From contig JACPKQ010000016.1 in NCBI GenBank assembly GCA_016186995.1, forward strand, positions 5,627 through 69,626: a stretch of DNA of 64,000 nucleotides, in the 5' to 3' direction. Position numbers and translations under genes: made by a program. Under the pieces are notes generated by a model, which saw nothing but the letters and a program-made list of their open reading frames with translations, made no database searches and was not told where the DNA came from. This stretch comes from Deltaproteobacteria bacterium (GTDB lineage: Bacteria; Bdellovibrionota; JACOXK01). Shown piece after piece: positions 12,486-54,459 of the stretch. The number at the start of each line of letters is the position of its first letter. Position 1 is the stretch's first letter.

Positions 12486-12510
12486 AATGGCATAATAACA
12501 AGCTTGCTTC

Positions 12511-12586
12511 TGAATTGGGGGCATATTTTTTGCTCCTAAACGTGCGCAAAAAACAGCGCCCCAATTCTCTCATGGATTTGAATTCC
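12511..12586. repeat. 74-bp hairpin-forming repeat (copy 1), inverted relative to the copy at 19634..19707
   Basis: gcttctgaattgggggcatattttttgctcctaaacgtgcgcaaaaaacagcgccccaattctctcatggattt. Its reverse complement is identical to 19634..19707. It is internally palindromic (gggggcatattttttgc / gcaaaaaacagcgcccc). Confidence 0.8.
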
Positions 12587-14564: not shown

Positions 14565-15509
14565 TTGGGGATGACAAGCATTATGAACAAATACTTAGAT
14601 GGAAAAAGATATTACTCCTTTGGACAACATCTTAAAGAACACTTTGGTGAGAAAGTTTATAAAGTTTCTTTGGATGGGGGATTTACTTGTCCCAACCGGG
14701 ATGGCACTTTAGGGCATGGTGGTTGCACATTTTGTAGCCAAGATGGTTCTTTAGCTCCAGGGGCTGATCCTTACATTGGACTCAAAGAACAAATTGAAAA
14801 AGGAAAAGTTTTTCTCGGTCAAAGGTATGGTGCTAAGAAATTTTTAGCTTATTTTCAATCTTTTTCAAATACCTATGGCGATGTTTTAGAACTTGAAAAA
14901 AAATATCGACTTGCTTTAAATCAAAAAGATATTGTAGGGCTTTCAGTTGCGACCCGCCCTGATTGCGTTCCTGATAAAACACTTGACCTGATAGCTGACA
15001 TTTCAAAAGATCATTACACCTGGTTAGAATTTGGGCTTCAAACGATGCATGATAATATTAATAAATCTTTAAACCGTCTTCATACTTTTAAAGACTTTGT
15101 ATCGGCTGTTGAGCGGGCTCACAAAAGAAATTTAAGAATTTGTGCTCATATTATTCTTTTTCTACCCGGAGAAACTAGAAAGCACATGGAAGAGACCATT
15201 CAGACCCTTTCCAAAATGCCTGTAACAGGCATTAAAGTACATCTCCTTCATGTTATTAAAAAAACAGCCCTTGCCTCCCAACATGCCAAGGGAGAAATCA
15301 GCCTTCCCTCGCAAAAAGAATATGTTGAAACCGTGGCTGATTTTGTAGAGCTTTTACCCCCTCATCTTATTATTCAAAGACTTACAGGGGAAACCTCTAA
15401 AGAGGAAATGATCGCCCCTCTGTGGGCTCTTAACAAAAATCAAATACTTAAAGAAATTAATGATACCCTTATTCAAAGAAATACTTGCCAAGGAAGCCGT
15501 TTCTATTAA
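14565..15509 (+). CDS. radical SAM protein, TIGR01212/YhcC-like
   Basis: Cys cluster CPNRDGTLGHGGCTFC near the N-terminus and a ~310-aa size typical of this family. Confidence 0.7.
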   Translation: MGMTSIMNKYLDGKRYYSFGQHLKEHFGEKVYKVSLDGGFTCPNRDGTLGHGGCTFCSQDGSLAPGADPYIGLKEQIEKGKVFLGQRYGAKKFLAYFQSFSNTYGDVLELEKKYRLALNQKDIVGLSVATRPDCVPDKTLDLIADISKDHYTWLEFGLQTMHDNINKSLNRLHTFKDFVSAVERAHKRNLRICAHIILFLPGETRKHMEETIQTLSKMPVTGIKVHLLHVIKKTALASQHAKGEISLPSQKEYVETVADFVELLPPHLIIQRLTGETSKEEMIAPLWALNKNQILKEINDTLIQRNTCQGSRFY

Positions 15510-15544
15510 AAAATAAATAGCTAGTTTAACGAATAGGAGGTGTT

Positions 15545-15982
15545 ATGAGAAAAATATTTTTTTTAATTTTAACGAGCTGCATGCTTTTAAGTCTTTCAAT
15601 TTGGGCTGTTGATATTGATTGTGATGTGTGCGGAATGGTCATTAAAGATAAAGCTCCAAATCACTTTATTCTTAAAAAAGCAGTAGCTTCTGAAAAAGCT
15701 CTCAATGCATGCTCAATCCCTTGTGTAAAAAAGGCAAAAAAAAGCTCGGCTCAATATACAAAGATAGAGGTTCCAGATTTTAATCATCCAGGAAAGTTTC
15801 TGGACGGTGAGAAAGCTTTTTTCCTTATCAAAAGCAAAAATGTTAAAAAAGACTTAGGTGATATGGTAATGCCTCCTCATGTGGTGGCATTTACAACAAA
15901 AGAAGAAGCTCTTGCTTCTCAGAAAAAATATGGTGATGGCGAAGTGGTGCAAGGATTAGAAAAAGCTTTAAAAGAGATTTAA
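15545..15982 (+). CDS. NosL-like / YHS-like metal-binding lipoprotein (putative copper chaperone)
   Basis: Signal peptide, then DIDCDVCGMVIKDKAPNHF (C-x2-C-G-M motif as in NosL/YHS domains). The C-terminus VVAFTTKEEALASQKKYG is NosL-like. Confidence 0.4.
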   Translation: MRKIFFLILTSCMLLSLSIWAVDIDCDVCGMVIKDKAPNHFILKKAVASEKALNACSIPCVKKAKKSSAQYTKIEVPDFNHPGKFLDGEKAFFLIKSKNVKKDLGDMVMPPHVVAFTTKEEALASQKKYGDGEVVQGLEKALKEI

Positions 15983-15996
15983 TAAAAATAAGTTTT

Positions 15997-16449
15997 ATGA
16001 AAAAAATACTAAAAAATATCATACTCGGTATGGGTTGTTTGCTCCTTCTCGTCTCATGTGGGCCCATGAATAAAAAACTAGCAAATCTTGATTCTGACAC
16101 TTCTTCTTTTGTAAAACCGGGTGAGGGCAAAAATCTTTCAAAAAATGCTCAGTTTTATATTTATAACTCACTTTTTCATTCGAAACCTATTTTAGGAGAT
16201 AATGAAATCACAATGAGATTTGTTTACGCCAATACTTTGGTATCACTTTCTGACAAAGCAAAGATCACCGTTATTTATAGCATGCCTGAAATGCCGCAAA
16301 TGGGTGAAGAAAAAGAAAATGCCACATTACAATCTGATGGAACTTTTTTAACAACACTTTTTTTTTCGATGGCAGGCCGTTGGCATATTATTTTAAAAAT
16401 AGAGGATGACTCCGTTCAGGATGAATATGCTTTTGAAATTACTCTCTAA
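15997..16449 (+). CDS. lipoprotein, FixH/YtkA-like domain
   Basis: Lipobox LLLLVSCG. The C-terminal motif GRWHIILKIEDDSVQDEYAFEITL is shared in form with the ORF at 17384 (GDWKFDISIARDQNDTFGKTININK). Confidence 0.35.
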   Translation: MKKILKNIILGMGCLLLLVSCGPMNKKLANLDSDTSSFVKPGEGKNLSKNAQFYIYNSLFHSKPILGDNEITMRFVYANTLVSLSDKAKITVIYSMPEMPQMGEEKENATLQSDGTFLTTLFFSMAGRWHIILKIEDDSVQDEYAFEITL

Positions 16450-17374
16450 GAAATATGTTCTTATTTTTACTTTTTTTTCCCTCATTTGGTCTGGATGGCT
16501 CCTAGCCTCAAGTTGTCATGGTGGAGGAGGCGGAGAAACCCTTGTTTTACCCTCCGGACAACGTTATCAATTCGGCTTTTCAACCTCTTATCGCTTCATT
16601 CAAGGTTCTTTTGATTCTTATGGTGGGTATACTTCTCAGTCTAAAAACTCTTCCATCAGCTCCACAACCACGTCATGGAGTGGTGGGGTAAGGCTGAGTG
16701 AGTCGTGGCAACTTTCATGGGCCCTTCCTCTTACTTATAATAAATATGTTTATTCAGGAAAAGATCACTCAAGGGCTTCTTTTGGGGATCCAGTTTTTGA
16801 AACAAGATATACATTTTTAGAAGATGTCCGTTTTTTATGGTATCAGCCAGAGCTTAGTTTTTATGGTGGAATACGACTTCCTTTTGGAACTTCAACTTAT
16901 AATTCATCTGACCCTTATGGAGCTGACGTTGTTGGGGAAGGTCTCAGTTTTGTTCACAGTGGAATGAGTGCCGCCAAACTTTTCCGTCCTTTTAAACTTA
17001 CAGTGAATTGGATTTTTTACTACCCATTAGAAAAAGAAGTGGACCAGATTCGAAATAGAAGTGTGGCTCCCTATGATTTTAAAAGTGGCAATCGTATTGT
17101 GCTCAATGGGGTTGCAAATTATCTCATTAGCAATCACTGGGCGACAGCCCTCGGTATCAAAGGATTTTGGATTTTAAAATCAAAAAAAGATCAAAATGTT
17201 GTAGAAGGATCTTCCGCACGATTATTTTCAATGACAGCTTCTCTTGGTTATGCGTACGATGTCTCATGGGGAATGGCTTTAAATTATGAGACCCCATTTC
17301 CATTTTATAAATATGGCGTTAATCAACCCAATTCCCACACACTTTCACTGTCCGTTAATTATGGGATATTTTAA
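16406..17374 (+). CDS. outer-membrane beta-barrel protein (porin/channel-like)
   Basis: Signal peptide, alternating amphipathic strands rich in Tyr/Gly/Ser, and an aromatic C-terminal residue (…NYGIF). Confidence 0.45.
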   Translation: MTPFRMNMLLKLLSKKYVLIFTFFSLIWSGWLLASSCHGGGGGETLVLPSGQRYQFGFSTSYRFIQGSFDSYGGYTSQSKNSSISSTTTSWSGGVRLSESWQLSWALPLTYNKYVYSGKDHSRASFGDPVFETRYTFLEDVRFLWYQPELSFYGGIRLPFGTSTYNSSDPYGADVVGEGLSFVHSGMSAAKLFRPFKLTVNWIFYYPLEKEVDQIRNRSVAPYDFKSGNRIVLNGVANYLISNHWATALGIKGFWILKSKKDQNVVEGSSARLFSMTASLGYAYDVSWGMALNYETPFPFYKYGVNQPNSHTLSLSVNYGIF

Positions 17375-17383
17375 GGAGGTTTT

Positions 17384-17779
17384 ATGAAAAAAATTCTATT
17401 CGTAATGAGTTTTGTGATGTTGGTCATCGTACCACCTATCATTGCCTCTGATGAGGGTGCCTTAGATCCTGCAGAGTTAACAGTTCAGGAAATATATCAA
17501 GTGAGTGGCAACTGGTCTTCTCTCAAACGCGGGTGGAATACTTTGATCCTAAAAATTTCGGATTCTCAAAACCAATCTATATCTCAAGCCAAGGTTACAG
17601 TGAAGTATGATATGGCCACAATGCCTATGAATCCACCAGATAATCCTGTCGTAGAAAAAGAGGGTGGAGTTTATGAAAAAAGTATCTTTTTGGGAATGGG
17701 GGGAGATTGGAAATTTGATATTTCCATTGCCCGAGATCAAAATGATACATTCGGCAAAACAATAAATATTAATAAATAA
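17384..17779 (+). CDS. FixH/YtkA-like periplasmic protein (paralog of 15997..16449)
   Basis: Signal peptide. MPMNPP plus the C-terminal GGDWKFDISIA motif parallel the upstream lipoprotein. Confidence 0.35.
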   Translation: MKKILFVMSFVMLVIVPPIIASDEGALDPAELTVQEIYQVSGNWSSLKRGWNTLILKISDSQNQSISQAKVTVKYDMATMPMNPPDNPVVEKEGGVYEKSIFLGMGGDWKFDISIARDQNDTFGKTININK

Positions 17780-17856: not shown

Positions 17857-19611
17857 ATGAAAAAAGAGTCTCTTCTTAAAAATCTGTGGCCTTTATTGGT
17901 AAAAAACAAAAAATCCTATTTTGCTGGCATTTTCTTTTTGGTTACAACCGTTGTTTTAAGTGTTCGCATTCCTTATTTTCTTAAAGAAGCTATTGATGCT
18001 ATTCGTATTCAAGACAGTACAACTATCCAAAAAATGGCTTTTCTTATCATAGGCGCTTCTTTTATCTTTTCCATAACACGTGTGTTTTCTAGAATTCTCA
18101 TGTTCAATCCAGGAAGACGAATTGAGTATGAAATTAGAAATAAATTTTTCGAAAAACTTTTGAATTCACCCCTTAAATATTTTCAAACAACAAGCATTGG
18201 TGATCTTATGTCACGTGCCACCAATGATCTTCATTCATTTAGAGCCATGATTGGTTTTGCAGGGTTAGGGCTTTTCAATGCTGTTCTTACTTTTGCTTTT
18301 GTTTTAGTTTCTATGTTTAGTTTAAGTTGGAAGCTAACATTGGTTTGTATTATTCCATTTCCTATTCTTATTTATGGTCTTAAAAACATTATTAAAAAAT
18401 TCTATCTCTATGCCAATGCATGCCAAGAAGGAATGGCAGATTTAAGCACAAAAGTTCAAGAAAACTTTAATGGTATTCATGTTATTAAGTCTTATGTTCA
18501 AGAACATAACAAATATGAAGACTTTAAAAAACTGAATCAACAATATTTCTCAGATTGTTTAAGACTAGCCAAAGTTGAAAGTGTCATCTTTCCCCTTTTT
18601 AGAGATCTCCCAAATCTCATACTACCTCTTATTCTTGTAACAGGTGGTTATTCTATTATTGGTGGGAACCTTTCTTTAGGAACTCTTGCTGCTTTTGTGA
18701 TTTATCTCAAACAACTTGCAAACCCAACCATGACTTTTGGATGGGTTATTAACATTTTACAACGCGGAAGAAGTGCCTTTCATCGCATTATAGAAGTCAT
18801 TCACGCCCCCATTGAACTAGAAAATACTCAAACTCAAAACCCTATTGTAGGAGAAGTTGAATTTCAAAATGTGAGTTTTCGCTACTTAGAAAATCAGGAA
18901 AACATTCTTGAGAATATTTCTTTTAAACTCAAACCAGGACAATCATTGGGCATTCTTGGAAAAACAGGGGCTGGTAAATCAACCCTTGTAAACCTTTTAA
19001 TGAGAAATGAAAAACCCGTATCTGGAAATGTTCTTTTAGATGGAAAACCCATTGACCACTATGCTTTAAAAGCTTTGAGAGATTCTATAGGCTACGTACC
19101 TCAGTCCTCGTTTCTCTTTTCAAAAACGCTTAGGGAAAATATTTATTTTGGGCTCAAAGAAGAAAATGAAAATGAAAATCTTTTAAACAAAGCCATCCAG
19201 AAAAGCCACTTGGCATATGATCTTGACCAGCTCTATCAAGGTGTACAAACAGTTGTTGGGGAAAAAGGAGTTACTCTTTCAGGAGGACAAAAACAGAGAA
19301 CAGCCATATCACGTGCCATCATTGGAAGCCACCAAATTTATATTTTTGATGACGCTTTTTCTTCTGTAGACCATGAAACAGAAGAAGAAATTTTAAAAAA
19401 TCTAAAAGATATCTTTCATGATAAAATCTGTATTTTTATTTCTCATAGAATTTCAACCTTAAAACTGTGTGACAAAATTATTTATCTTAAACAAGGTGGT
19501 ATTTCTGAAAGAGGCACCCATGAAGAACTGTTAGAAAATAAAAAAGATTATTTTAGAACTTTTACACTACAGAATTTGGATGGGCTGGATCCTTCGATAG
19601 GCTCTGGATGA
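17857..19611 (+). CDS. ABC exporter, fused permease-ATPase (half transporter 1)
   Basis: Six-TM N-terminal domain, Walker A GKTGAGKST, signature LSGGQKQR, Walker B IYIFDDAFS. Confidence 0.85.
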   Translation: MKKESLLKNLWPLLVKNKKSYFAGIFFLVTTVVLSVRIPYFLKEAIDAIRIQDSTTIQKMAFLIIGASFIFSITRVFSRILMFNPGRRIEYEIRNKFFEKLLNSPLKYFQTTSIGDLMSRATNDLHSFRAMIGFAGLGLFNAVLTFAFVLVSMFSLSWKLTLVCIIPFPILIYGLKNIIKKFYLYANACQEGMADLSTKVQENFNGIHVIKSYVQEHNKYEDFKKLNQQYFSDCLRLAKVESVIFPLFRDLPNLILPLILVTGGYSIIGGNLSLGTLAAFVIYLKQLANPTMTFGWVINILQRGRSAFHRIIEVIHAPIELENTQTQNPIVGEVEFQNVSFRYLENQENILENISFKLKPGQSLGILGKTGAGKSTLVNLLMRNEKPVSGNVLLDGKPIDHYALKALRDSIGYVPQSSFLFSKTLRENIYFGLKEENENENLLNKAIQKSHLAYDLDQLYQGVQTVVGEKGVTLSGGQKQRTAISRAIIGSHQIYIFDDAFSSVDHETEEEILKNLKDIFHDKICIFISHRISTLKLCDKIIYLKQGGISERGTHEELLENKKDYFRTFTLQNLDGLDPSIGSG

Positions 19612-19633
19612 CAGGGAACAAATGAATCCATGA

Positions 19634-19707
19634 GAGAATTGGGGCGCTGTTTTTTGCGCACGTTTAGGAGCAAAAAATATGCCCCCAATTCAGAAGCAAG
19701 GTTGTAT
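19634..19707. repeat. 74-bp hairpin repeat (copy 2), inverted relative to 12511..12586
   Basis: Exact reverse complement of the 12511..12586 element. Confidence 0.8.
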
Positions 19708-19715
19708 TTAAAATA

Positions 19716-19770
19716 CTGGATTCCCGCCTCCGCGGGAATGACAGAAGGGGCCTGCAGGGATGACAGAGGA
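19716..19770. repeat. palindromic element 'ctggattcccgcctccgcgggaatgacagaa...gggatgacagagg'
   Basis: Perfect palindrome ggattcccg/cgggaatcc around a short loop. Same family as 1835..1893, 31145..31173 and 37839..37894, and related to the cores of 50204..50362 and 54170..54335. Confidence 0.7.
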
Positions 19771-19773
19771 TTT

Positions 19774-21537
19774 ATGAGTATGAGCGAAAATAAAAACTTT
19801 CTCACAGATAAAAAAAAAAAAAAAAAATTTTGGGGGTTTTTAAAACCCTATAAAAAAACTATATTCTTAAGTCTTGCCCTTATCTTTTGCATTGCAAGTT
19901 TAGGGCTGATTCAACCCCTTCTTATTAAGAAAGCGATTGATGATTACATAGCACACAAGGACGTATCAAGCCTTCTTGTGGTTTCCTCTACACTTTTGCT
20001 TGTGATCGGGGTCGAATACGGTCTTCGTTGTATGCAAGTTTTTCTCATGCAAAAAACTGGAGAAGAAACAATTCGAGATATCCGCAATGCACTTTATGCA
20101 CACATTCAAAGTCTCAAAACAGATTTTTTCTCAAAACAACCTATTGGACGCCTTGTCACCCGATGCACAACAGACATTGAAGCCCTTACAGAAATGTTTA
20201 CCTCAGGGCTTGTCGCTATCCTTGCCGATCTTTTTATGATTATAGGTATTGTTTTTATGCTTTTTTATCTGAGTCCTCAAATGACTCTGGCGAGTTTTCT
20301 TGTACTTCCCTTTCTTGTTATAGCAGCCCTTTATTTTCAAAAAAAGATGCGCTCTGCTTTTAGAAACATTCGAAAATACGTTGGAAATTTAAATGGATAT
20401 CTTCAAGAAAACCTAAATGGCATGGATGTTGTGCAGACCTTTAATCAAGAAGAACAAGCCTTTAAAGAGTTTAATGATCTCAACTTTAAAATTATGGGCT
20501 TTCACTTTCAAAATATTACCTATGACGCCATTCTTTACTCTATTGTTGAAGCCTTAAGTGCTATTACAATGGGGTTGATCATTTGGTTTAGTTCTGGAAG
20601 TCTTATTCAAGGGTTGATTACTGCAGGAACTCTTGTTGCTTTTATAGAATATATTCAAAGGTTTTTTATTCCTATTCGAGACTTGTCACAAAAATATGCC
20701 ATTATGCAATCAGGTTTGGCCTCCCTTGAAAGAATTTTTGCTCTTCTTGAAACAAAAGAGTTGATTCCTGTTTCTGCACAAGCTTTGATTCCTCACAAAG
20801 TAGAAGGATACATAGAATTTAAAAATATTTCTTTTTCTTACAAAGAAAATGAGCCTGTTTTAAAAAACGTTTCTTTCAAAATACAAAATGGTGAAAAAGT
20901 AGCCTTTGTAGGCCCTACAGGAAGTGGTAAATCAACCATTATGAAACTGATCACACGCCTTTATGATGTTAACGATGGGGAAATTTTGCTTGATGGTATT
21001 GATGTTCGAAACTTAAATCTAAAGTTTTTAAGAAAAAATGTGTGCCTTGTTTCTCAAGACTTTTTCATTTTTTCTGGAAGTGTTTCAGAAAATGTAAGTT
21101 TAGGAGATCCTTCTATTACAAAAGAAAACGTTATAGAAGCCTGTAAGGCTGTTGGTATTCATGAATTTATTCTTTCACTTACGCAAGGGTATGGCACAAA
21201 ATTAGCCGAAAAAGGAAGTAATATTTCTGTGGGCCAACGACAACTCATTTCTTTTGCAAGGGCTTTTGCCTTTAACCCGAAAGTACTTATTTTGGATGAA
21301 GCCACATCTAATATTGATACCCATACAGAAATTTTGATTCAAAAAGCTTTGGAAAAATTGATTGAAGGAAGAACGTCCATGATTATTGCACACCGCCTTT
21401 CAACCATTAGAAATGTAGACCGTATTTTTGTTCTTCATAAGGGAAAAATTATTGAAAATGGATCTCATGAACAACTAGTCAGAGAAAAAGGGCTTTATCA
21501 CAAACTTTATTCACTTCAATTCCAACCTCATTTATAA
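19774..21537 (+). CDS. ABC exporter, fused permease-ATPase (half transporter 2), A18 tract in codons 12-18
   Basis: Start chosen at MSMSENKNFLTDKKKKKKFWGFLKPYKK. The upstream part of the ORF (from 19630) is a translation of the repeats. Walker A GPTGSGKST, signature VGQRQL, Walker B LILDEATS. Confidence 0.8.
   Translation: MSMSENKNFLTDKKKKKKFWGFLKPYKKTIFLSLALIFCIASLGLIQPLLIKKAIDDYIAHKDVSSLLVVSSTLLLVIGVEYGLRCMQVFLMQKTGEETIRDIRNALYAHIQSLKTDFFSKQPIGRLVTRCTTDIEALTEMFTSGLVAILADLFMIIGIVFMLFYLSPQMTLASFLVLPFLVIAALYFQKKMRSAFRNIRKYVGNLNGYLQENLNGMDVVQTFNQEEQAFKEFNDLNFKIMGFHFQNITYDAILYSIVEALSAITMGLIIWFSSGSLIQGLITAGTLVAFIEYIQRFFIPIRDLSQKYAIMQSGLASLERIFALLETKELIPVSAQALIPHKVEGYIEFKNISFSYKENEPVLKNVSFKIQNGEKVAFVGPTGSGKSTIMKLITRLYDVNDGEILLDGIDVRNLNLKFLRKNVCLVSQDFFIFSGSVSENVSLGDPSITKENVIEACKAVGIHEFILSLTQGYGTKLAEKGSNISVGQRQLISFARAFAFNPKVLILDEATSNIDTHTEILIQKALEKLIEGRTSMIIAHRLSTIRNVDRIFVLHKGKIIENGSHEQLVREKGLYHKLYSLQFQPHL
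19810..19827 (+). repeat. A18 homopolymer inside coding sequence (encodes KKKKKK)
   Basis: gat(a)18ttttggggg read directly from the sequence. Confidence 0.9.
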
Positions 21538-22859: not shown

Positions 22860-23862
22860 ATGGAAACACTTGCAGGTTTTTTAGCAGAACTCACAAACAA
22901 TGTGCTTCCCTTTTGGGCTTATAGTCTCATTGCCATTCTACTTATTTTGGGTGTTGTGGCTCTTCCATTTGCAGGCATTGCCACTTATCTGGAAAGAAAG
23001 GTTTCGGCTGATATTCAAGCACGCATTGGCCCCAATCGTGTGGGCCCCTTTTATTCTTGCCCCCATGATTGTTATTGTAGGAAGTTTCGCTTCTTTTGTT
23101 GTTATTCCTTTTTCAGAAAAAATTATTATTTCAGATTTAAACATCGGTTTTCTTTATCTTCTTGCGATGGGTTCTCTTGTAGGGTTGGGTATTATTATGG
23201 GAGGTTGGGCCTCTAACAACAAATGGTCTCTTTTAGGCGGAATGCGTTCTGCAGCCCAAGTTATTTCTTATGAAATACCAAGTGCTTTAGCAGGCCTTTC
23301 AGTTGTGCTTGTTTCTGGAAGTTTGAGTTTTGGAACAATTGTAAGAGAGCAATCTCACTTGAACTGGTATATTTTTCATAATCCTTTTCTTTTTATCAAT
23401 TTTTTTATTTTTTTCACTGCTGCTTTAGCCGAAGTCAATCGAACACCCTTTGATATTCCAGAAGCAGAATCAGAACTTGTTGGAGGGTTCCATACAGAAT
23501 ATTCAGGTATGCGTTTTGCTATTTTCTTTATGGCAGAATACGCTGATATTTTTGTCATTTGTGCTATTTCTTCTGCTCTCTTTTTAGGTGGATGGTACTT
23601 ACCTTTCATTCCACTTGATGCTCTTTCTACAAACTTAAAAGTTTTTGTTCAGTTTTTTGTTGTCACTACAAAGACCCTCATTCTTTTTTATGTTGTCATG
23701 TGGTTAAGATGGACTTTGCCACGATATCGTGTGGATCAGCTGCTTGCTATTTGCTGGAAGTTTTTAACCCCACTTGCTTTTACAATGTTGATCTTTACAG
23801 CTCTTTGGGTTCTTGTTTTTCAAGGACGTGGGCTTGTACAAATGATTCAGGAGTTATTTTAA
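22860..23862 (+). pseudogene. nuoH: NADH-quinone oxidoreductase subunit H (cluster 1), disrupted by an out-of-frame internal deletion
   Basis: Frame 1 reads METLAGF...ARIGPNRVGPF and then degenerates. The NuoH sequence resumes in another frame (ORF 22900..23862: ...FILAPMIVIVGSFASFVVIPF...GGWASNNKWSLLGGMRSAAQVISYEI...). Relative to the intact copy at 32452, about 28 codons (LGLFQPIADGIKF...KILF) are missing at ~23046. Confidence 0.6.
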
Positions 23863-30696: not shown

Positions 30697-31144
30697 TCAG
30701 AAATACATTGAAGAAATTTTTTCTAGATACCCTAACAAGCGGGCAGCAACCCTCCCACTTTTAACGCTTGCACAAGAAAGATTTGGATACATTTCAAAAG
30801 AAGCCTGTGTGTGGGTTGCAGAGCTTATTGGGGTTTCCCCTATGGAAGTTCATGAAACAGCAAGTTTTTACACCCTGTATTATTTAGAACCTGTGGGCAA
30901 AAATAAAATTAAACTATGCACTAATGTTTCTTGCATGCTTTTAGGGGCTAAAAAAATTGAAAAAACCTTAAAAAGAAAATTGGGTTTAAAAAAGAAAGGC
31001 ACTACAGAAGATAAAAAATTTCATTTTGAAACAGCAGAATGTTTAGGTTATTGCGATAAAGCCCCTGTGATGCAGATAAATACCGAAACATTTGAAAAAA
31101 TTTCTGATGAAAAGGTAGATGAAATTTTAAAAAAATATGAATAG
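30665..31144 (+). CDS. nuoE: NADH-quinone oxidoreductase subunit E (24 kDa, [2Fe-2S])
   Basis: Cys ligands in CTNVSCMLLGAKK...TAECLGYCDKAPVMQIN. Confidence 0.8.
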   Translation: MIKQKKMKNTDQKYIEEIFSRYPNKRAATLPLLTLAQERFGYISKEACVWVAELIGVSPMEVHETASFYTLYYLEPVGKNKIKLCTNVSCMLLGAKKIEKTLKRKLGLKKKGTTEDKKFHFETAECLGYCDKAPVMQINTETFEKISDEKVDEILKKYE

Positions 31145-31173
31145 TGGATTCCCGCCTTTGCGGGAATGACATT
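31145..31173. repeat. palindromic element ggattcccgcctttgcgggaatgacattgg between nuoE and nuoF
   Basis: 9-bp perfect stems ggattcccg/cgggaatcc; family of 19716..19770. Confidence 0.7.
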
Positions 31174-36301: not shown

Positions 36302-37909
36302 ATGGATTTATTGTTAAAACATTTTTTAAGCATTACTATTTTCTTACCGGCCCTTTTTGGCCTTTTTCTTTTTTTTATACCTCAAAGTAAAACAAGGTTT
36401 TTAAAATTTGTTTCTTTAAACGGAAGTATTCTTACCTTTTTAATGACCCTTGGCATTTTGTGTTATTTTACAGGAACGGCTGAAGTACAATTTGTTGAAA
36501 AATATTCCTGGATACCTCTTTTTGGGGTTTCTTATTTTATTGGTATCGATGGTTTAAGCCTTTATCTTTTTATTCTTACAAGTTTTTTGACACCCCTTGT
36601 TCTTCTTTATGTATCTCCTGAAGAAAAAAAGCTAAAACCCTTTTTGATTCTTATTTTATTTTTAGAAACGGCTATGCTCGGTACTTTTGCAGCGCTTGAC
36701 CTTATTCTTTTCTACATTTTTTGGGAGGCCATGCTCATCCCCATGTATTTTATGATTGGAGTGTGGGGTGGGGAAGAAAGGCTGTACGCAACGATCAAGT
36801 TTTTGCTTTATACCATTCTAGGAAGCTTCTTAATGTTAGTTGCCTTGATTGCACTTGTGATGATTCACCATTCAACAACAGGTGTTTTTACAACAAATCT
36901 TTTAAAACTTTATGGCACACCATTAGGCTCTTTAGAAATGTGGTTGTTTTTAGGATTTGCTCTTGCCTTTCTTATTAAAGTGCCCCTTTTTCCTTTTCAT
37001 ACATGGTTGCCTGATGCACACGTTCAGGCTCCCACAGAAGGAAGCGTCATTTTAGCAGGGATTTTACTTAAAATGGGTATGTATGGACTTTTTCGTTTTG
37101 CTTTGCCTTTATTCCCTCAAGCAAGCATGGCGGTGACACCTTATGTTGTTACCCTTGCGCTTATAGGAATTATTTATGGTGCTTTTCTGGCCTGGGCTCA
37201 AAAAGATCTTAAAAAACTTGTGGCCTATTCAAGTGTCAGTCACTTAGGTTATGCAGTGCTAGGGCTTTTTGTTTTAAACCATACAGGGGTTACAGGAAGC
37301 TTAGTTCAAAATATCTCTCACGGGCTTGCCACAGGGGCACTCTTTTTTATTGTTGGAATGATTTACAAACGTACTCACACAAAGAAAATTGAAGAATTGG
37401 GTGGGCTTGCAAGTTCATGTCCTAAACTTTTCTTTTTCTTTCTCATTGCAACATTGGCAAGTATTGGTTTACCCCTTACAAGTGGTTTTGTAGGTGAGAT
37501 CCTTTGTCTTTTTGGAGCTTTCCAAGAATATGGCGTACAGGGTTTTGCGTGGGGTGGGGAAACTTTGATCAACATAAGAAATATTATTTTTGGAACAGTG
37601 GGCATTCTTGGCGTACTTATGGGTGCTATCTACATGCTTAATATGTTTCAAAAAGTAATGTTTGGAAAACCAAAATTTGAAGATTTGAAAGATCTTGAAT
37701 GGAAAGAGGTTTTAGTTTTAACACCTTTAATTATTATGATTTTCTCAATTGGGGTGTACCCAAAATTGCTCACAAACAAGATGGAAAATTCTATCGATCA
37801 TCTTGTTAAAAACGTTTATAAATATTCGTTAACAACTTTGTCATTCCCACCCGAAGCTCTCGGCACAAGCGGGAACCCAGAAAGCGAAGCTACCTCTAAA
37901 AAGGATTAA
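36302..37909 (+). CDS. nuoM: NADH-quinone oxidoreductase subunit M (cluster 2) with repeat-encoded C-terminal tail
   Basis: FPFHTWLPDAHVQAPTEGSVILAGILLKMGMYGLFR. The last ~23 aa (LSFPPEALGTSGNPESEATSKKD) are encoded by palindromic element 37839..37894 and are absent from the cluster-1 NuoM. Confidence 0.85.
   Translation: MDLLLKHFLSITIFLPALFGLFLFFIPQSKTRFLKFVSLNGSILTFLMTLGILCYFTGTAEVQFVEKYSWIPLFGVSYFIGIDGLSLYLFILTSFLTPLVLLYVSPEEKKLKPFLILILFLETAMLGTFAALDLILFYIFWEAMLIPMYFMIGVWGGEERLYATIKFLLYTILGSFLMLVALIALVMIHHSTTGVFTTNLLKLYGTPLGSLEMWLFLGFALAFLIKVPLFPFHTWLPDAHVQAPTEGSVILAGILLKMGMYGLFRFALPLFPQASMAVTPYVVTLALIGIIYGAFLAWAQKDLKKLVAYSSVSHLGYAVLGLFVLNHTGVTGSLVQNISHGLATGALFFIVGMIYKRTHTKKIEELGGLASSCPKLFFFFLIATLASIGLPLTSGFVGEILCLFGAFQEYGVQGFAWGGETLINIRNIIFGTVGILGVLMGAIYMLNMFQKVMFGKPKFEDLKDLEWKEVLVLTPLIIMIFSIGVYPKLLTNKMENSIDHLVKNVYKYSLTTLSFPPEALGTSGNPESEATSKKD
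37839..37894. repeat. palindromic element (inverse orientation copy of the 1835..1893 family) forming the 3' end of nuoM-2
   Basis: tgtcattcccacccgaagctctcggcacaagcgggaacccagaaagcgaagctacc aligns at roughly 75% identity (by eye) to the reverse complement of 1835..1893. Confidence 0.7.
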
Positions 37910-53822: not shown

Positions 53823-54459
53823 ACATACGTTACCCCCTCAACAAAGGTCTTTGTAATGGTGCTTAACAACACGCCTCAATTCTCTCATGGATTTGAATCT
53901 CCTTGTCATTTCCGCTCTGAGGTGAAGCCAATAGCTGGAATCCAGTATTAATTTTAAGCTCTTGAAATGGTAACAAAAGATAGGGATAGTACTTCCTTCG
54001 GGTACGGCGTCACTTTTTTCCTGCGAAAAAGTGCGCCTCGCGTCTCAGTCAATCTGCCACATATTCTATGTGGACCAAGCCAGATTTCCTTCCGACACGA
54101 CCCTCTGTAAGCACTATCCCTATCTTTTGCCCTATAGATTTATTTCGAGTTCATGTGAAGAAATGGTTACTATCTGGAGCGGAAGTAAAGCGGAGCCCAA
54201 AATTTGTAAATATTCAGAATTCTCTCATCCCGGACAGTGCTTTAGCACTTACGGGATAACGAAGAATTCATGTGGAACAATTACAGCGAGCCATGAAGCG
54301 AAAGATAGTAACCATTTTAAGAACTTAATTTGGAAAAGAAGAATACTAGATTCCTGCTTGTGCGCTTTGCGCTATCAGCGGGAAGGATGTTCTCAAAGGT
54401 GGGTTGACTTTGAATACTTAATTATGCTAAAAATTGGCGCCTTTGTGGGGAGGAACTAA
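53823..54459. repeat. 640-nt non-coding repeat mosaic including copy B (54170..54335) of the 155-bp element and a fragment of the 74-bp element (53868-53900)
   Basis: The alignment to 50204..50362 is described above. caattctctcatggatttgaat matches 12565-12586. The predicted ORFs in this region are low-complexity and overlap repeats. Confidence 0.7.

Follow-up and report, generated by a model that had tools for sequence, protein, structure and literature searches.

Poly(A) and poly(T) tracts in the 5' part of bacterial coding sequences are enriched near gene starts and can mediate reversible gene inactivation (Orsi et al. 2010, PMC2831843; Lin & Kussell 2012, PMC3315296); the A6/A7 tract of inlA, for instance, varies about 1000-fold faster than the rate of point mutation (PMC2831843). 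Selection generally acts against simple repeats of about 10 bp or more on account of their mutability (Lin & Kussell 2012, PMC3315296), and their N-terminal enrichment in some species has been read as tuning for phase variation (PMC3315296). We analysed a 64,000-nucleotide stretch of contig JACPKQ010000016.1 (Deltaproteobacteria bacterium, assembly GCA_016186995.1, positions 5,627 to 69,626 of the forward strand), hereafter called the window, which carries an uninterrupted run of 18 adenines (A18) within the first codons of the second of two adjacent ATP-binding cassette (ABC) half-transporter genes, designated as ABC1 and ABC2, respectively. The anatomy of this tract fits that of a slippage switch and makes it a candidate for one.

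The nearest described case is p78 of Mycoplasma fermentans (Theiss & Wise 1997, as summarised in PMC2831843 and PMC3711429), likewise a gene of an ABC transporter operon with poly(A) in its 5' coding part. According to these summaries, high-frequency switching between A7 and A8 was shown experimentally, and loss of one A causes a frameshift and thereby the OFF state. As described there, p78 belongs to an importer of a host-associated mollicute, in which it is the substrate-binding lipoprotein at the surface, whereas ABC2 is an exporter subunit comprising a transmembrane domain (TMD) and a nucleotide-binding domain (NBD), carries A18 and belongs to an uncultivated environmental bacterium. inlA of Listeria monocytogenes resembles ABC2 in its N-terminal homopolymer and in a very short frameshift product (8 residues for inlA, 22-26 here) that is reversible by a second slippage. 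Tracts of the inlA type, however, measure 6-7 nt and occur in both states across strains, whereas A18 is far longer and was seen once.

Bacterial RNA polymerase slips on runs of nine A or T and produces mRNAs with up to six extra nucleotides (PMC5009743), and the rate of insertion during transcription climbs exponentially with run length (PMC5574713). In tssM1 of Citrobacter rodentium, an A11 run causes 20-25% transcriptional frameshifting (PMC4256274). This gene and the tracts of the endosymbionts Buchnera and Blochmannia, as far as these are cited in PMC5009743 and PMC5574713, share with ABC2 a long coding A run from which one allele gives rise, or in ABC2 would give rise, to several mRNA frames. 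The shifted frame of tssM1 encodes the needed full-length protein, and both of its products are functional, whereas slippage on A18 can only lower or rescue ABC2 expression; the endosymbiont tracts, as they are cited, reflect weak selection genome-wide, whereas the window genome otherwise avoids such runs.

At the level of translation, consecutive AAA codons cause stalling and sliding of E. coli ribosomes, an effect that is robust for A11 and longer runs and leads to termination at out-of-frame stops (Koutmou et al. 2015, PMC4363877), and tracts of at least 12 A's halve reporter output (Arthur et al. 2015, PMC4552401). With 18 A's, the window tract exceeds the length of about 11-12 A's in a coding sequence that characterises such poly(A)-track attenuators (PMC4363877, PMC4552401), and it shares with them the encoded lysines, at least 11 A's in length, and out-of-frame stops nearby, located 14 and 24 nt past the tract. 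The attenuator effects were described with reporters and eukaryotic genes, whereas the window tract is known from sequence alone. To our knowledge, no natural bacterial gene uses an A18 tract as a translational attenuator.

Direct reading of positions 19807-19833 gave GAT-A18-TTTTGG, with the adenine run occupying exactly 19810-19827. It encodes six lysines (Lys6) as codons 13-18 if counted from the ATG at 19774 and as codons 11-16 if counted from that at 19780. An initial annotation of the window had reported a run of 18 adenines encoding KKKKKK within the first 20 codons, and its coordinates, product and placement were all borne out. A homopolymer census of the whole window counted 73 runs of A7, 21 of A8, three of A9 and a single A18, the sole homopolymer longer than nine; the longest other runs were T 9, G 6 and C 7. 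As the counts of A runs drop 2-7-fold with each added base (decay about 0.15-0.5), the number of 18-mers expected in 64 kb is about 1e-4 or less, and the tract is thus not attributable to chance. Nor is it a local anomaly of composition, since the G+C content is 35% throughout the window.

Codon bias does not account for the tract either. In 59 long open reading frames (ORFs) of the window, AAA makes up 1355 of 1564 lysine codons (86.6%). All 13 other runs of at least three lysines in these frames nevertheless contain at least one AAG. When lysine codons were shuffled among lysine positions, 8.7 +/- 1.7 pure-AAA runs were expected, and none of 2000 shuffles gave one or fewer; this synonymous shuffling, together with the interruption of every other lysine run, excludes codon bias as the cause of A18. 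These results demonstrate that the genome avoids coding A runs of at least nine, a rule that selection otherwise upholds here, and A18 is the exception that escaped or was favoured. A similar avoidance of A runs in coding sequence was reported for E. coli and yeast (PMC4363877).

The six-frame ORF of ABC2 opens at the ATG at 19630 and translates two repeat elements as ...YWIPASAGMTEGACRDDRGF...; this long frame is an artefact of ORF calling. The initial annotation had placed the plausible true start at the in-frame ATGs at 19774 and 19780, and this proposal proved sound. Copies of the repeats lie elsewhere in the window, and the extension from 19630 was rejected as no homologue reaches that far, the upstream part of the frame is repeat DNA, and the NCBI record and the relatives begin at the MSMSEN/MMSQEH position. 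The deposited protein of this metagenome-assembled genome (MAG), MBI2608772.1 ('Deltaproteobacteria bacterium', 585 residues), is 100% identical to ABC2 and starts at 19780. A start at 19774 yields 587 residues and makes the protein exactly collinear with its closest relative P0002 (MSMSEN... vs MMSQEH...). A GAGG motif at 19766-19769, which probably serves as the Shine-Dalgarno (SD) site, is located 4 nt before the ATG at 19774 and 10 nt before that at 19780.

A start downstream of the tract, which the initial annotation had named, together with a fixed tract length in all reads, as the finding that would speak against its proposal, was examined as well and is ruled out. The next in-frame ATG, GTG or TTG after the tract is a GTG at codon 69, past the elbow helix and the first transmembrane helix (TM1), and the alignment with 34 homologues is ungapped at the tract. 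With no start before codon 69 and homologues that are collinear through the tract, A18 lies inside the coding sequence and is translated.

The N-terminus of ABC2 was aligned with those of 34 relatives, giving 35 sequences in total. The closest ones, P0002-P0007, are 61-68% identical, and the next tier of about 47% consists mostly of Ignavibacteria-type sequences. The N-terminal motif D-x-x-L-[ML]-x-[KR]-[LF]-[LW]-x-[YF]-[ILV]-x-P-Y is ungapped in all 35 sequences, and its D12 is invariant and retained in the window. Window position 15 is Leu in all 34 other sequences and Lys in ABC2. Lys6 stands in for the K-x-L-x-L-K segment with which the N-terminal (elbow) helix starts in this family. The window protein reads T-D-KKKKKK-F-W-G-F-L-K-P-Y, and the corresponding segments of the closest relatives are S-D-KELMLK-F-W, S-D-KELSLK-F-W, S-D-RELLFR-F-W, T-D-KQLFWK-F-W and S-D-KKLFLK-F-W. 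At the DNA level, GAT AAA AAA TTA TTT TTA AAA TTT TGG in locus L001 of the relative P0007 (JACOXK010000154.1) corresponds to GAT AAA AAA AAA AAA AAA AAA TTT TGG in the window. Exactly six codons were replaced, with frame and ancestral spacing intact and conserved hydrophobic residues overwritten. As Lys replaces a Leu conserved in 34 relatives within an ungapped motif, a cause at the DNA level is favoured over one at the protein level.

The opposite explanation would be selection for the protein sequence itself, with the six lysines next to TM1 forming a positive-inside or lipid-headgroup anchor of the elbow helix and A18 arising as a by-product of the preference for AAA. The region is cytoplasmic and basic in this family, positions 13 and 18 at the ends of the segment are K or R in the relatives, and AAA accounts for 87% of the lysine codons. 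However, every other lysine run of the window is interrupted by AAG, the overwritten positions are hydrophobic (L, M/L/F) in all 34 homologues, and nothing similar occurs in 86 homologous loci. We consider this explanation highly improbable. An AlphaFold model of ABC2 (mean pLDDT 79.6) places the tract where the first helix begins and is poorly defined, at its N-terminal end, with pLDDT values of 32 for residues 1-10 and 61 for residues 11-20; the elbow helix is not separated from TM1 in this model, which is not decisive.

Outside the tract, ABC2 shows no sign of decay. It deviates at 6 of the 167 columns conserved to at least 90%, a count not above that of its closest relatives, and the departures outside the tract affect only four positions and are conservative (R/Q, V/I, I/V and L/V). 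As this degree of conservation matches that of the relatives, the gene is under normal constraint and functional. In the 86 homologous loci (720 kb), the longest run within -150 to +300 of the gene start was 9 and the longest anywhere 12. The tract is likewise absent from the 80 loci among them that are more distant than the six closest relatives, of which the nearest is only 68% identical to ABC2. From this distribution, the tract appears to be of evolutionarily recent origin.

A recent origin also fits a non-adaptive accident, in which a short A run expanded by slippage in a permissive N-terminal tail and serves no regulatory role; such a tract would be transient and mildly deleterious and may be a first step to loss of the exporter. 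The tract is lineage-specific and overwrites the Leu found in 34 of 34 relatives, L001 carries AAAAAA at the same place (GAT AAA AAA TTA...), the locus was also hit by mobile repeats, and nuoH on the same contig is disrupted, as described below. On the other hand, the avoidance of A runs of at least nine in all other lysine runs of this genome is difficult to reconcile with such an accident, unselected drift would hardly be expected to leave an in-frame run of 18 nt with exactly the ancestral number of codons, and the rest of ABC2 is fully conserved. We regard an accident as rather unlikely.

The consequences of changes in tract length were computed in silico for a series of lengths. Tracts of A12, A15, A18, A21 and A24 yield the full-length protein with 4-8 lysines. 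Both other frames end after 5-9 codons past the tract (Table 1), and A16, A17, A19 and A20 therefore yield products of 22-26 residues with no usable restart. The earlier prediction that a change of plus or minus one base would shut off the subunit thus holds in silico: translation is truncated after 22-26 codons, and the next in-frame start is codon 69. Programmed recoding to a second protein was considered as a further function of the tract and rejected, as both other frames stop early, the downstream hairpin is weak (-7.5 kcal/mol, z -0.63, not significant) and no Rfam family matches the tract region; the site is also absent from the relatives.

ABC1 and ABC2 lie adjacent on the plus strand, and each comprises an ABC_membrane and an ABC_tran domain (Pfam). 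ABC2 matches solved chains over its full length, namely TmrA (5mkk_A), TM288 (3qf4_B) and YheH/BmrD (8t1p_D), in agreement with its first description as an ABC half-transporter, and the best solved half-transporter match of ABC1 is YheI/BmrC (8t1p_C). In ABC1, the Walker B motif IYIFDDA has Asp at the position of the catalytic Glu and is combined with a canonical signature, LSGGQ. ABC2 has the catalytic Glu in its Walker B motif, LILDEAT, and a deviant signature, ISVGQ. Judged by the residues that we take to define the degenerate site in TM287/288-type exporters, the pair presumably forms one degenerate and one consensus ATP site. ABC1 is thus the predicted subunit with the degenerate ATP site and ABC2 the only one predicted to have a competent catalytic site. 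As the sole catalytic Glu resides in ABC2, loss of ABC2 should inactivate the whole transporter.

The pair shows both features of heterodimeric type IV ABC exporters such as TM287/288, TmrAB and BmrCD (YheIH): adjacent paired genes for half-transporters with full-length similarity to solved chains, and a degenerate Walker B motif in the first subunit, which lacks the Glu, combined with a second subunit that has the Glu and a non-canonical signature. Unlike TM287/288-type systems, it has a spacer filled with repeats in place of the usual gene overlap, and Lys6 in the N-terminal helix of its second subunit.

With about as much confidence as doubt, we favour a real, recent and hypermutable tract that acts as a leaky ON/OFF switch or dimmer of this exporter. 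Its hypermutability and its effects on RNA and translation are extrapolated from the established behaviour of poly(A). A18 would far exceed the lengths at which DNA polymerase, RNA polymerase and the ribosome begin to slip, and ABC2 output would be unstable at three levels. Replication slippage would lead to heritable changes in length, and those that are not a multiple of three would end translation after 22-26 codons; as no other subunit has a catalytic Glu, truncation of ABC2 would abolish the whole exporter (ON/OFF). Slippage of RNA polymerase would create mRNAs of mixed length, and since part of the mRNA pool would always be in another frame, the ON allele would be attenuated and OFF alleles would be leaky. 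Sliding of ribosomes on the consecutive AAA codons would lower the yield of ABC2 further. The net effect would be a stochastic, leaky switch or dimmer on the exporter.

Several observations weigh against a leaky switch. The tract is known from one contig and one protein record, and variation of its length was not observed. A break of the reading frame in nuoH on the same contig means that single-base accuracy of the assembly is not guaranteed. A tract as long as A18 should blur the ON and OFF states, giving leaky and attenuated output instead of a clean switch. The product is an inner-membrane TMD-NBD exporter subunit and not a typical surface or modification gene of contingency loci. Neither the homopolymer census nor Tandem Repeats Finder, which detected no other notable simple repeat in the window, provided a second simple-repeat candidate in the 64 kb, and a general habit of using contingency loci is hence not apparent. 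Finally, none of the six closest relatives (61-68% identity) carries the tract, and over this distance there is no sign of its long-term maintenance. Of the classical phase-variation switch originally proposed, the in-frame tract, the early stops and the lack of a restart can be retained; the leaky output to be expected and the absence from the six closest relatives weaken the case for the classical form.

The locus is best treated as a candidate contingency locus that would work like a slippage switch. It has both anatomical hallmarks, a repeat of hypermutable length inside the reading frame, here the in-frame A18 of ABC2, and abolition of the product by changes that are not a multiple of three. 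It does not fall into the typical, though not obligatory, gene classes of surface structures, their biosynthesis and restriction-modification. One can speculate further that the tract is a selected contingency locus by which a free-living, uncultivated groundwater-type bacterium turns the exporter ON and OFF as bet-hedging, for example with respect to a toxin, a phage or the cost of export, and that the wider clade also uses homopolymer switches; we regard this extension as doubtful. If true, classical phase variation would reach beyond host-associated pathogens, into an environmental lineage and a core subunit of an inner-membrane exporter.

While the mechanism class is already well known, the tract is unusually long, and gene class and organism are unusual. 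If its length varies in nature, an environmental bacterium would have a multidrug-type ABC exporter of which a core subunit, ABC2, is phase-variable. A18 would then rank among the longest poly(A) tracts that bacteria are known to maintain in frame within coding sequence, and the locus would show on one natural tract how slippage in replication and in transcription combines with sliding of ribosomes. If it does not vary, the tract is a caution for MAG annotation and one extreme exception in a genome that otherwise purges A runs.

Homopolymers of another kind were observed in the relative P0007. Just downstream of the ABC pair in L001, in DNA of 37% G+C, there are three poly-G tracts, G11 at 3296-3306, G10 at 4744-4753 and G11 at 6466-6476. 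Each separates a -35-like hexamer (TTGATT, TTGACC and TTGCCT) from the -10-like TAGAAT and lies upstream of small proteins with signal peptides (171 and 140 residues), and two of them share the leader CTTAGGTATCGGTCTTTTT. This arrangement looks like the textbook layout of promoter-spacer phase-variation cassettes. The window lacks this cassette, and a search of metagenome contigs for more copies gave no match. Its putative presence in L001 modestly raises the prior that the broad group uses homopolymer switches.

Between ABC1 and ABC2, a spacer of 162 nt (19612-19773) consists of repeat DNA. The corresponding genes of five relatives share an ATGA overlap or are separated by 4 nt (L001 at ~280, L002 at ~5001, L004 at ~548, L005 at ~1841 and L006 at ~2548). 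The stop/start coupling usual for such heterodimer genes is lost in the window, where a new SD-like GAGG probably lies in repeat-derived sequence, within a half copy of a repeat designated as element B. No promoter-like or plus-strand terminator-like site was detected in a scan of the spacer, and co-transcription of ABC1 and ABC2 is therefore likely. The RNA of 19600-19835 has a strong predicted fold (-64.4 kcal/mol, z -2.67), and in the predicted centroid structure, which is of low confidence, positions 19622-19629 are base-paired with a stretch that includes the SD-like site and the first ATG (19768-19775). According to this low-confidence prediction, the fold might limit independent initiation at ABC2.

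The rebuilding in the window lineage of the coupling that sets the 1:1 ratio leaves some room for the tract being mainly an attenuator of expression. RNA polymerase slippage and stalling or sliding of ribosomes would then keep ABC2 output low, DNA-level changes would be rare or irrelevant, and the overlapping stop/start coupling of the genes may have been lost before the attenuator arose. The structured-repeat spacer of 162 nt, compared with ATGA or a 4-nt gap in five relatives, is consistent with such a rebuilt control of stoichiometry, and poly(A) tracks of at least 11-12 A's cut protein output in E. coli and eukaryotes (PMC4363877, PMC4552401). A heterodimer, however, needs its subunits in a 1:1 ratio, lowering the second one alone has no obvious benefit, and an 18-long tract cannot avoid slippage at the DNA level. 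A predominant role as attenuator is hence unlikely.

The protein collection contained a single record of ABC2, with the next match at 68% identity; an exact-protein look-up found no contig carrying the ABC2 protein, a flank-anchored pattern scan of metagenome contigs with a variable gap gave no match, and the representative genome collection contained nothing closer than 42% identity. On the same contig nuoH (22860-23862, plus strand), encoding subunit H of complex I, is split over two frames with the junction at ~23045-23052. Residues 1-64 are encoded in the frame of the ATG at 22860 (Pfam NADHdh positions 2-40) and the remainder in the +1 frame (ORF 22900-23862), and comparison with NdhA (6nbq_A) revealed that about 26 residues (73-98 of the chain) are missing. 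Either this essential subunit has truly undergone an internal deletion with a frameshift, or the assembly is locally wrong.

An assembly or sequencing artefact would mean that the tract is absent or of wrong length and that the segment is really K-x-L-x-L-K or a shorter, interrupted A-rich one. The single metagenome-assembled contig without an independent copy, the error-prone lengths of homopolymers, and nuoH, in which the loss of about 26 codons with a change of frame may be a local misassembly, are in line with this view. However, 18 A's are shorter than a read and than typical assembly k-mers, and spanning reads presumably supported the tract; both flanks are homologous to relatives, with exactly six codons replaced and the frame kept; and common Illumina artefacts are poly-G and not poly-A. 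An artefact is therefore very unlikely in our view, and if the sequence is wrong, a miscount by plus or minus one base is more likely than a wholly spurious tract.

Table 1. Coordinates of the two transporter genes, the tract, the stops reached after changes in tract length, and the repeat elements (positions in the window)
Feature	Position	Strand	Basis or remark
ABC1, first half-transporter (TMD and NBD, 584 residues)	17857..19611	+	Pfam, PDB match, motifs
ABC2, second half-transporter (587 or 585 residues)	19774..21537	+	Pfam, PDB matches, 100% identity to MBI2608772.1, motifs
A18 homopolymer, six AAA Lys codons	19810..19827	+	Sequence, homopolymer census, alignments, codon-shuffle test
TAA stop reached with A17 or A20 (...KKKKK(K)NFGGF*)	19841..19843	+	Product of 22-23 residues
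TAA stop reached with A16 or A19 (...K(n)ILGVFKTL*)	19851..19853	+	Product of 25-26 residues
Degenerate B-type repeat (CTGGATCC...GGATGACAG), putative	19585..19614	+	By-eye comparison with B copies
Element A, hairpin of ~76 nt with 22-nt arms (AATCCATGAGAGAATTGGGGCGCTGTTTTTTGC...GCAAAAAATATGCCCCCAATTCAGAAGCAAG)	19625..19700	+	Inverted repeat
Element A, further copy	~12497-12578	-	Identical
Element A, further copy	~53840-53895	-	Diverged, following B element
Element B, REP-like hairpin (CTGGATTCCCGC-CTCC-GCGGGAATGACAG)	19716..19744	+	
Element B, further copy	~1849-1890	+	
Element B, further copy	31144-31171	+	
Element B, further copy	~37839-37880	-	
Element B, further copy	~53904-53945	-	
Element B, half copy (GCAGGGATGACAGAGG)	19754..19769	+	Direct repeats; 3' end carries GAGG

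The repeats of the spacer belong to two families, A and B, neither of which was found in the 86 fetched homologous loci. Element B has the general form CTGGATTCCCGC-(4-20 nt loop)-GCGGGAATGACA and occupies intergenic spots; one copy (31144-31171) sits exactly between the stop of nuoE and the start of nuoF. Element A directly follows element B twice, in the spacer and near 53900, and the two may form a composite B+A unit. ABC1 has an additional C-terminal tail, GLDPSIGSG*, which together with the TGA stop of the gene (19609-19611) coincides with the degenerate B-type repeat, the probable source of both; the ABC1 proteins of the relatives end five residues after the QNL/LQQ motif and that of the window ends ten after it. 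The 9-nt direct repeat GGATGACAG at 19606 and 19758 was considered as a target-site duplication from a single insertion and rejected, as both copies are the 3' ends of B-type repeats. A role of the complementary T18 as terminator or promoter on the minus strand was discarded: it is not called for by any minus-strand gene, and the terminator-like hits on that strand are the repeat hairpins themselves.

Inside ABC1, an exact triplicate of GAAAAT at 19162-19179 encodes ENENEN in frame and is probably trivial. Upstream of the ABC pair, the region 14565-17779 contains a conserved radical-SAM gene and a gene for a 322-residue protein without a Pfam match, and two YtkA-like domain proteins and a 145-residue signal-peptide protein with a CDVCGM motif are also encoded on this side of the pair in the window. 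This synteny is partly common to the relative L002 (1072-3137) and may hint at the role of the exporter.

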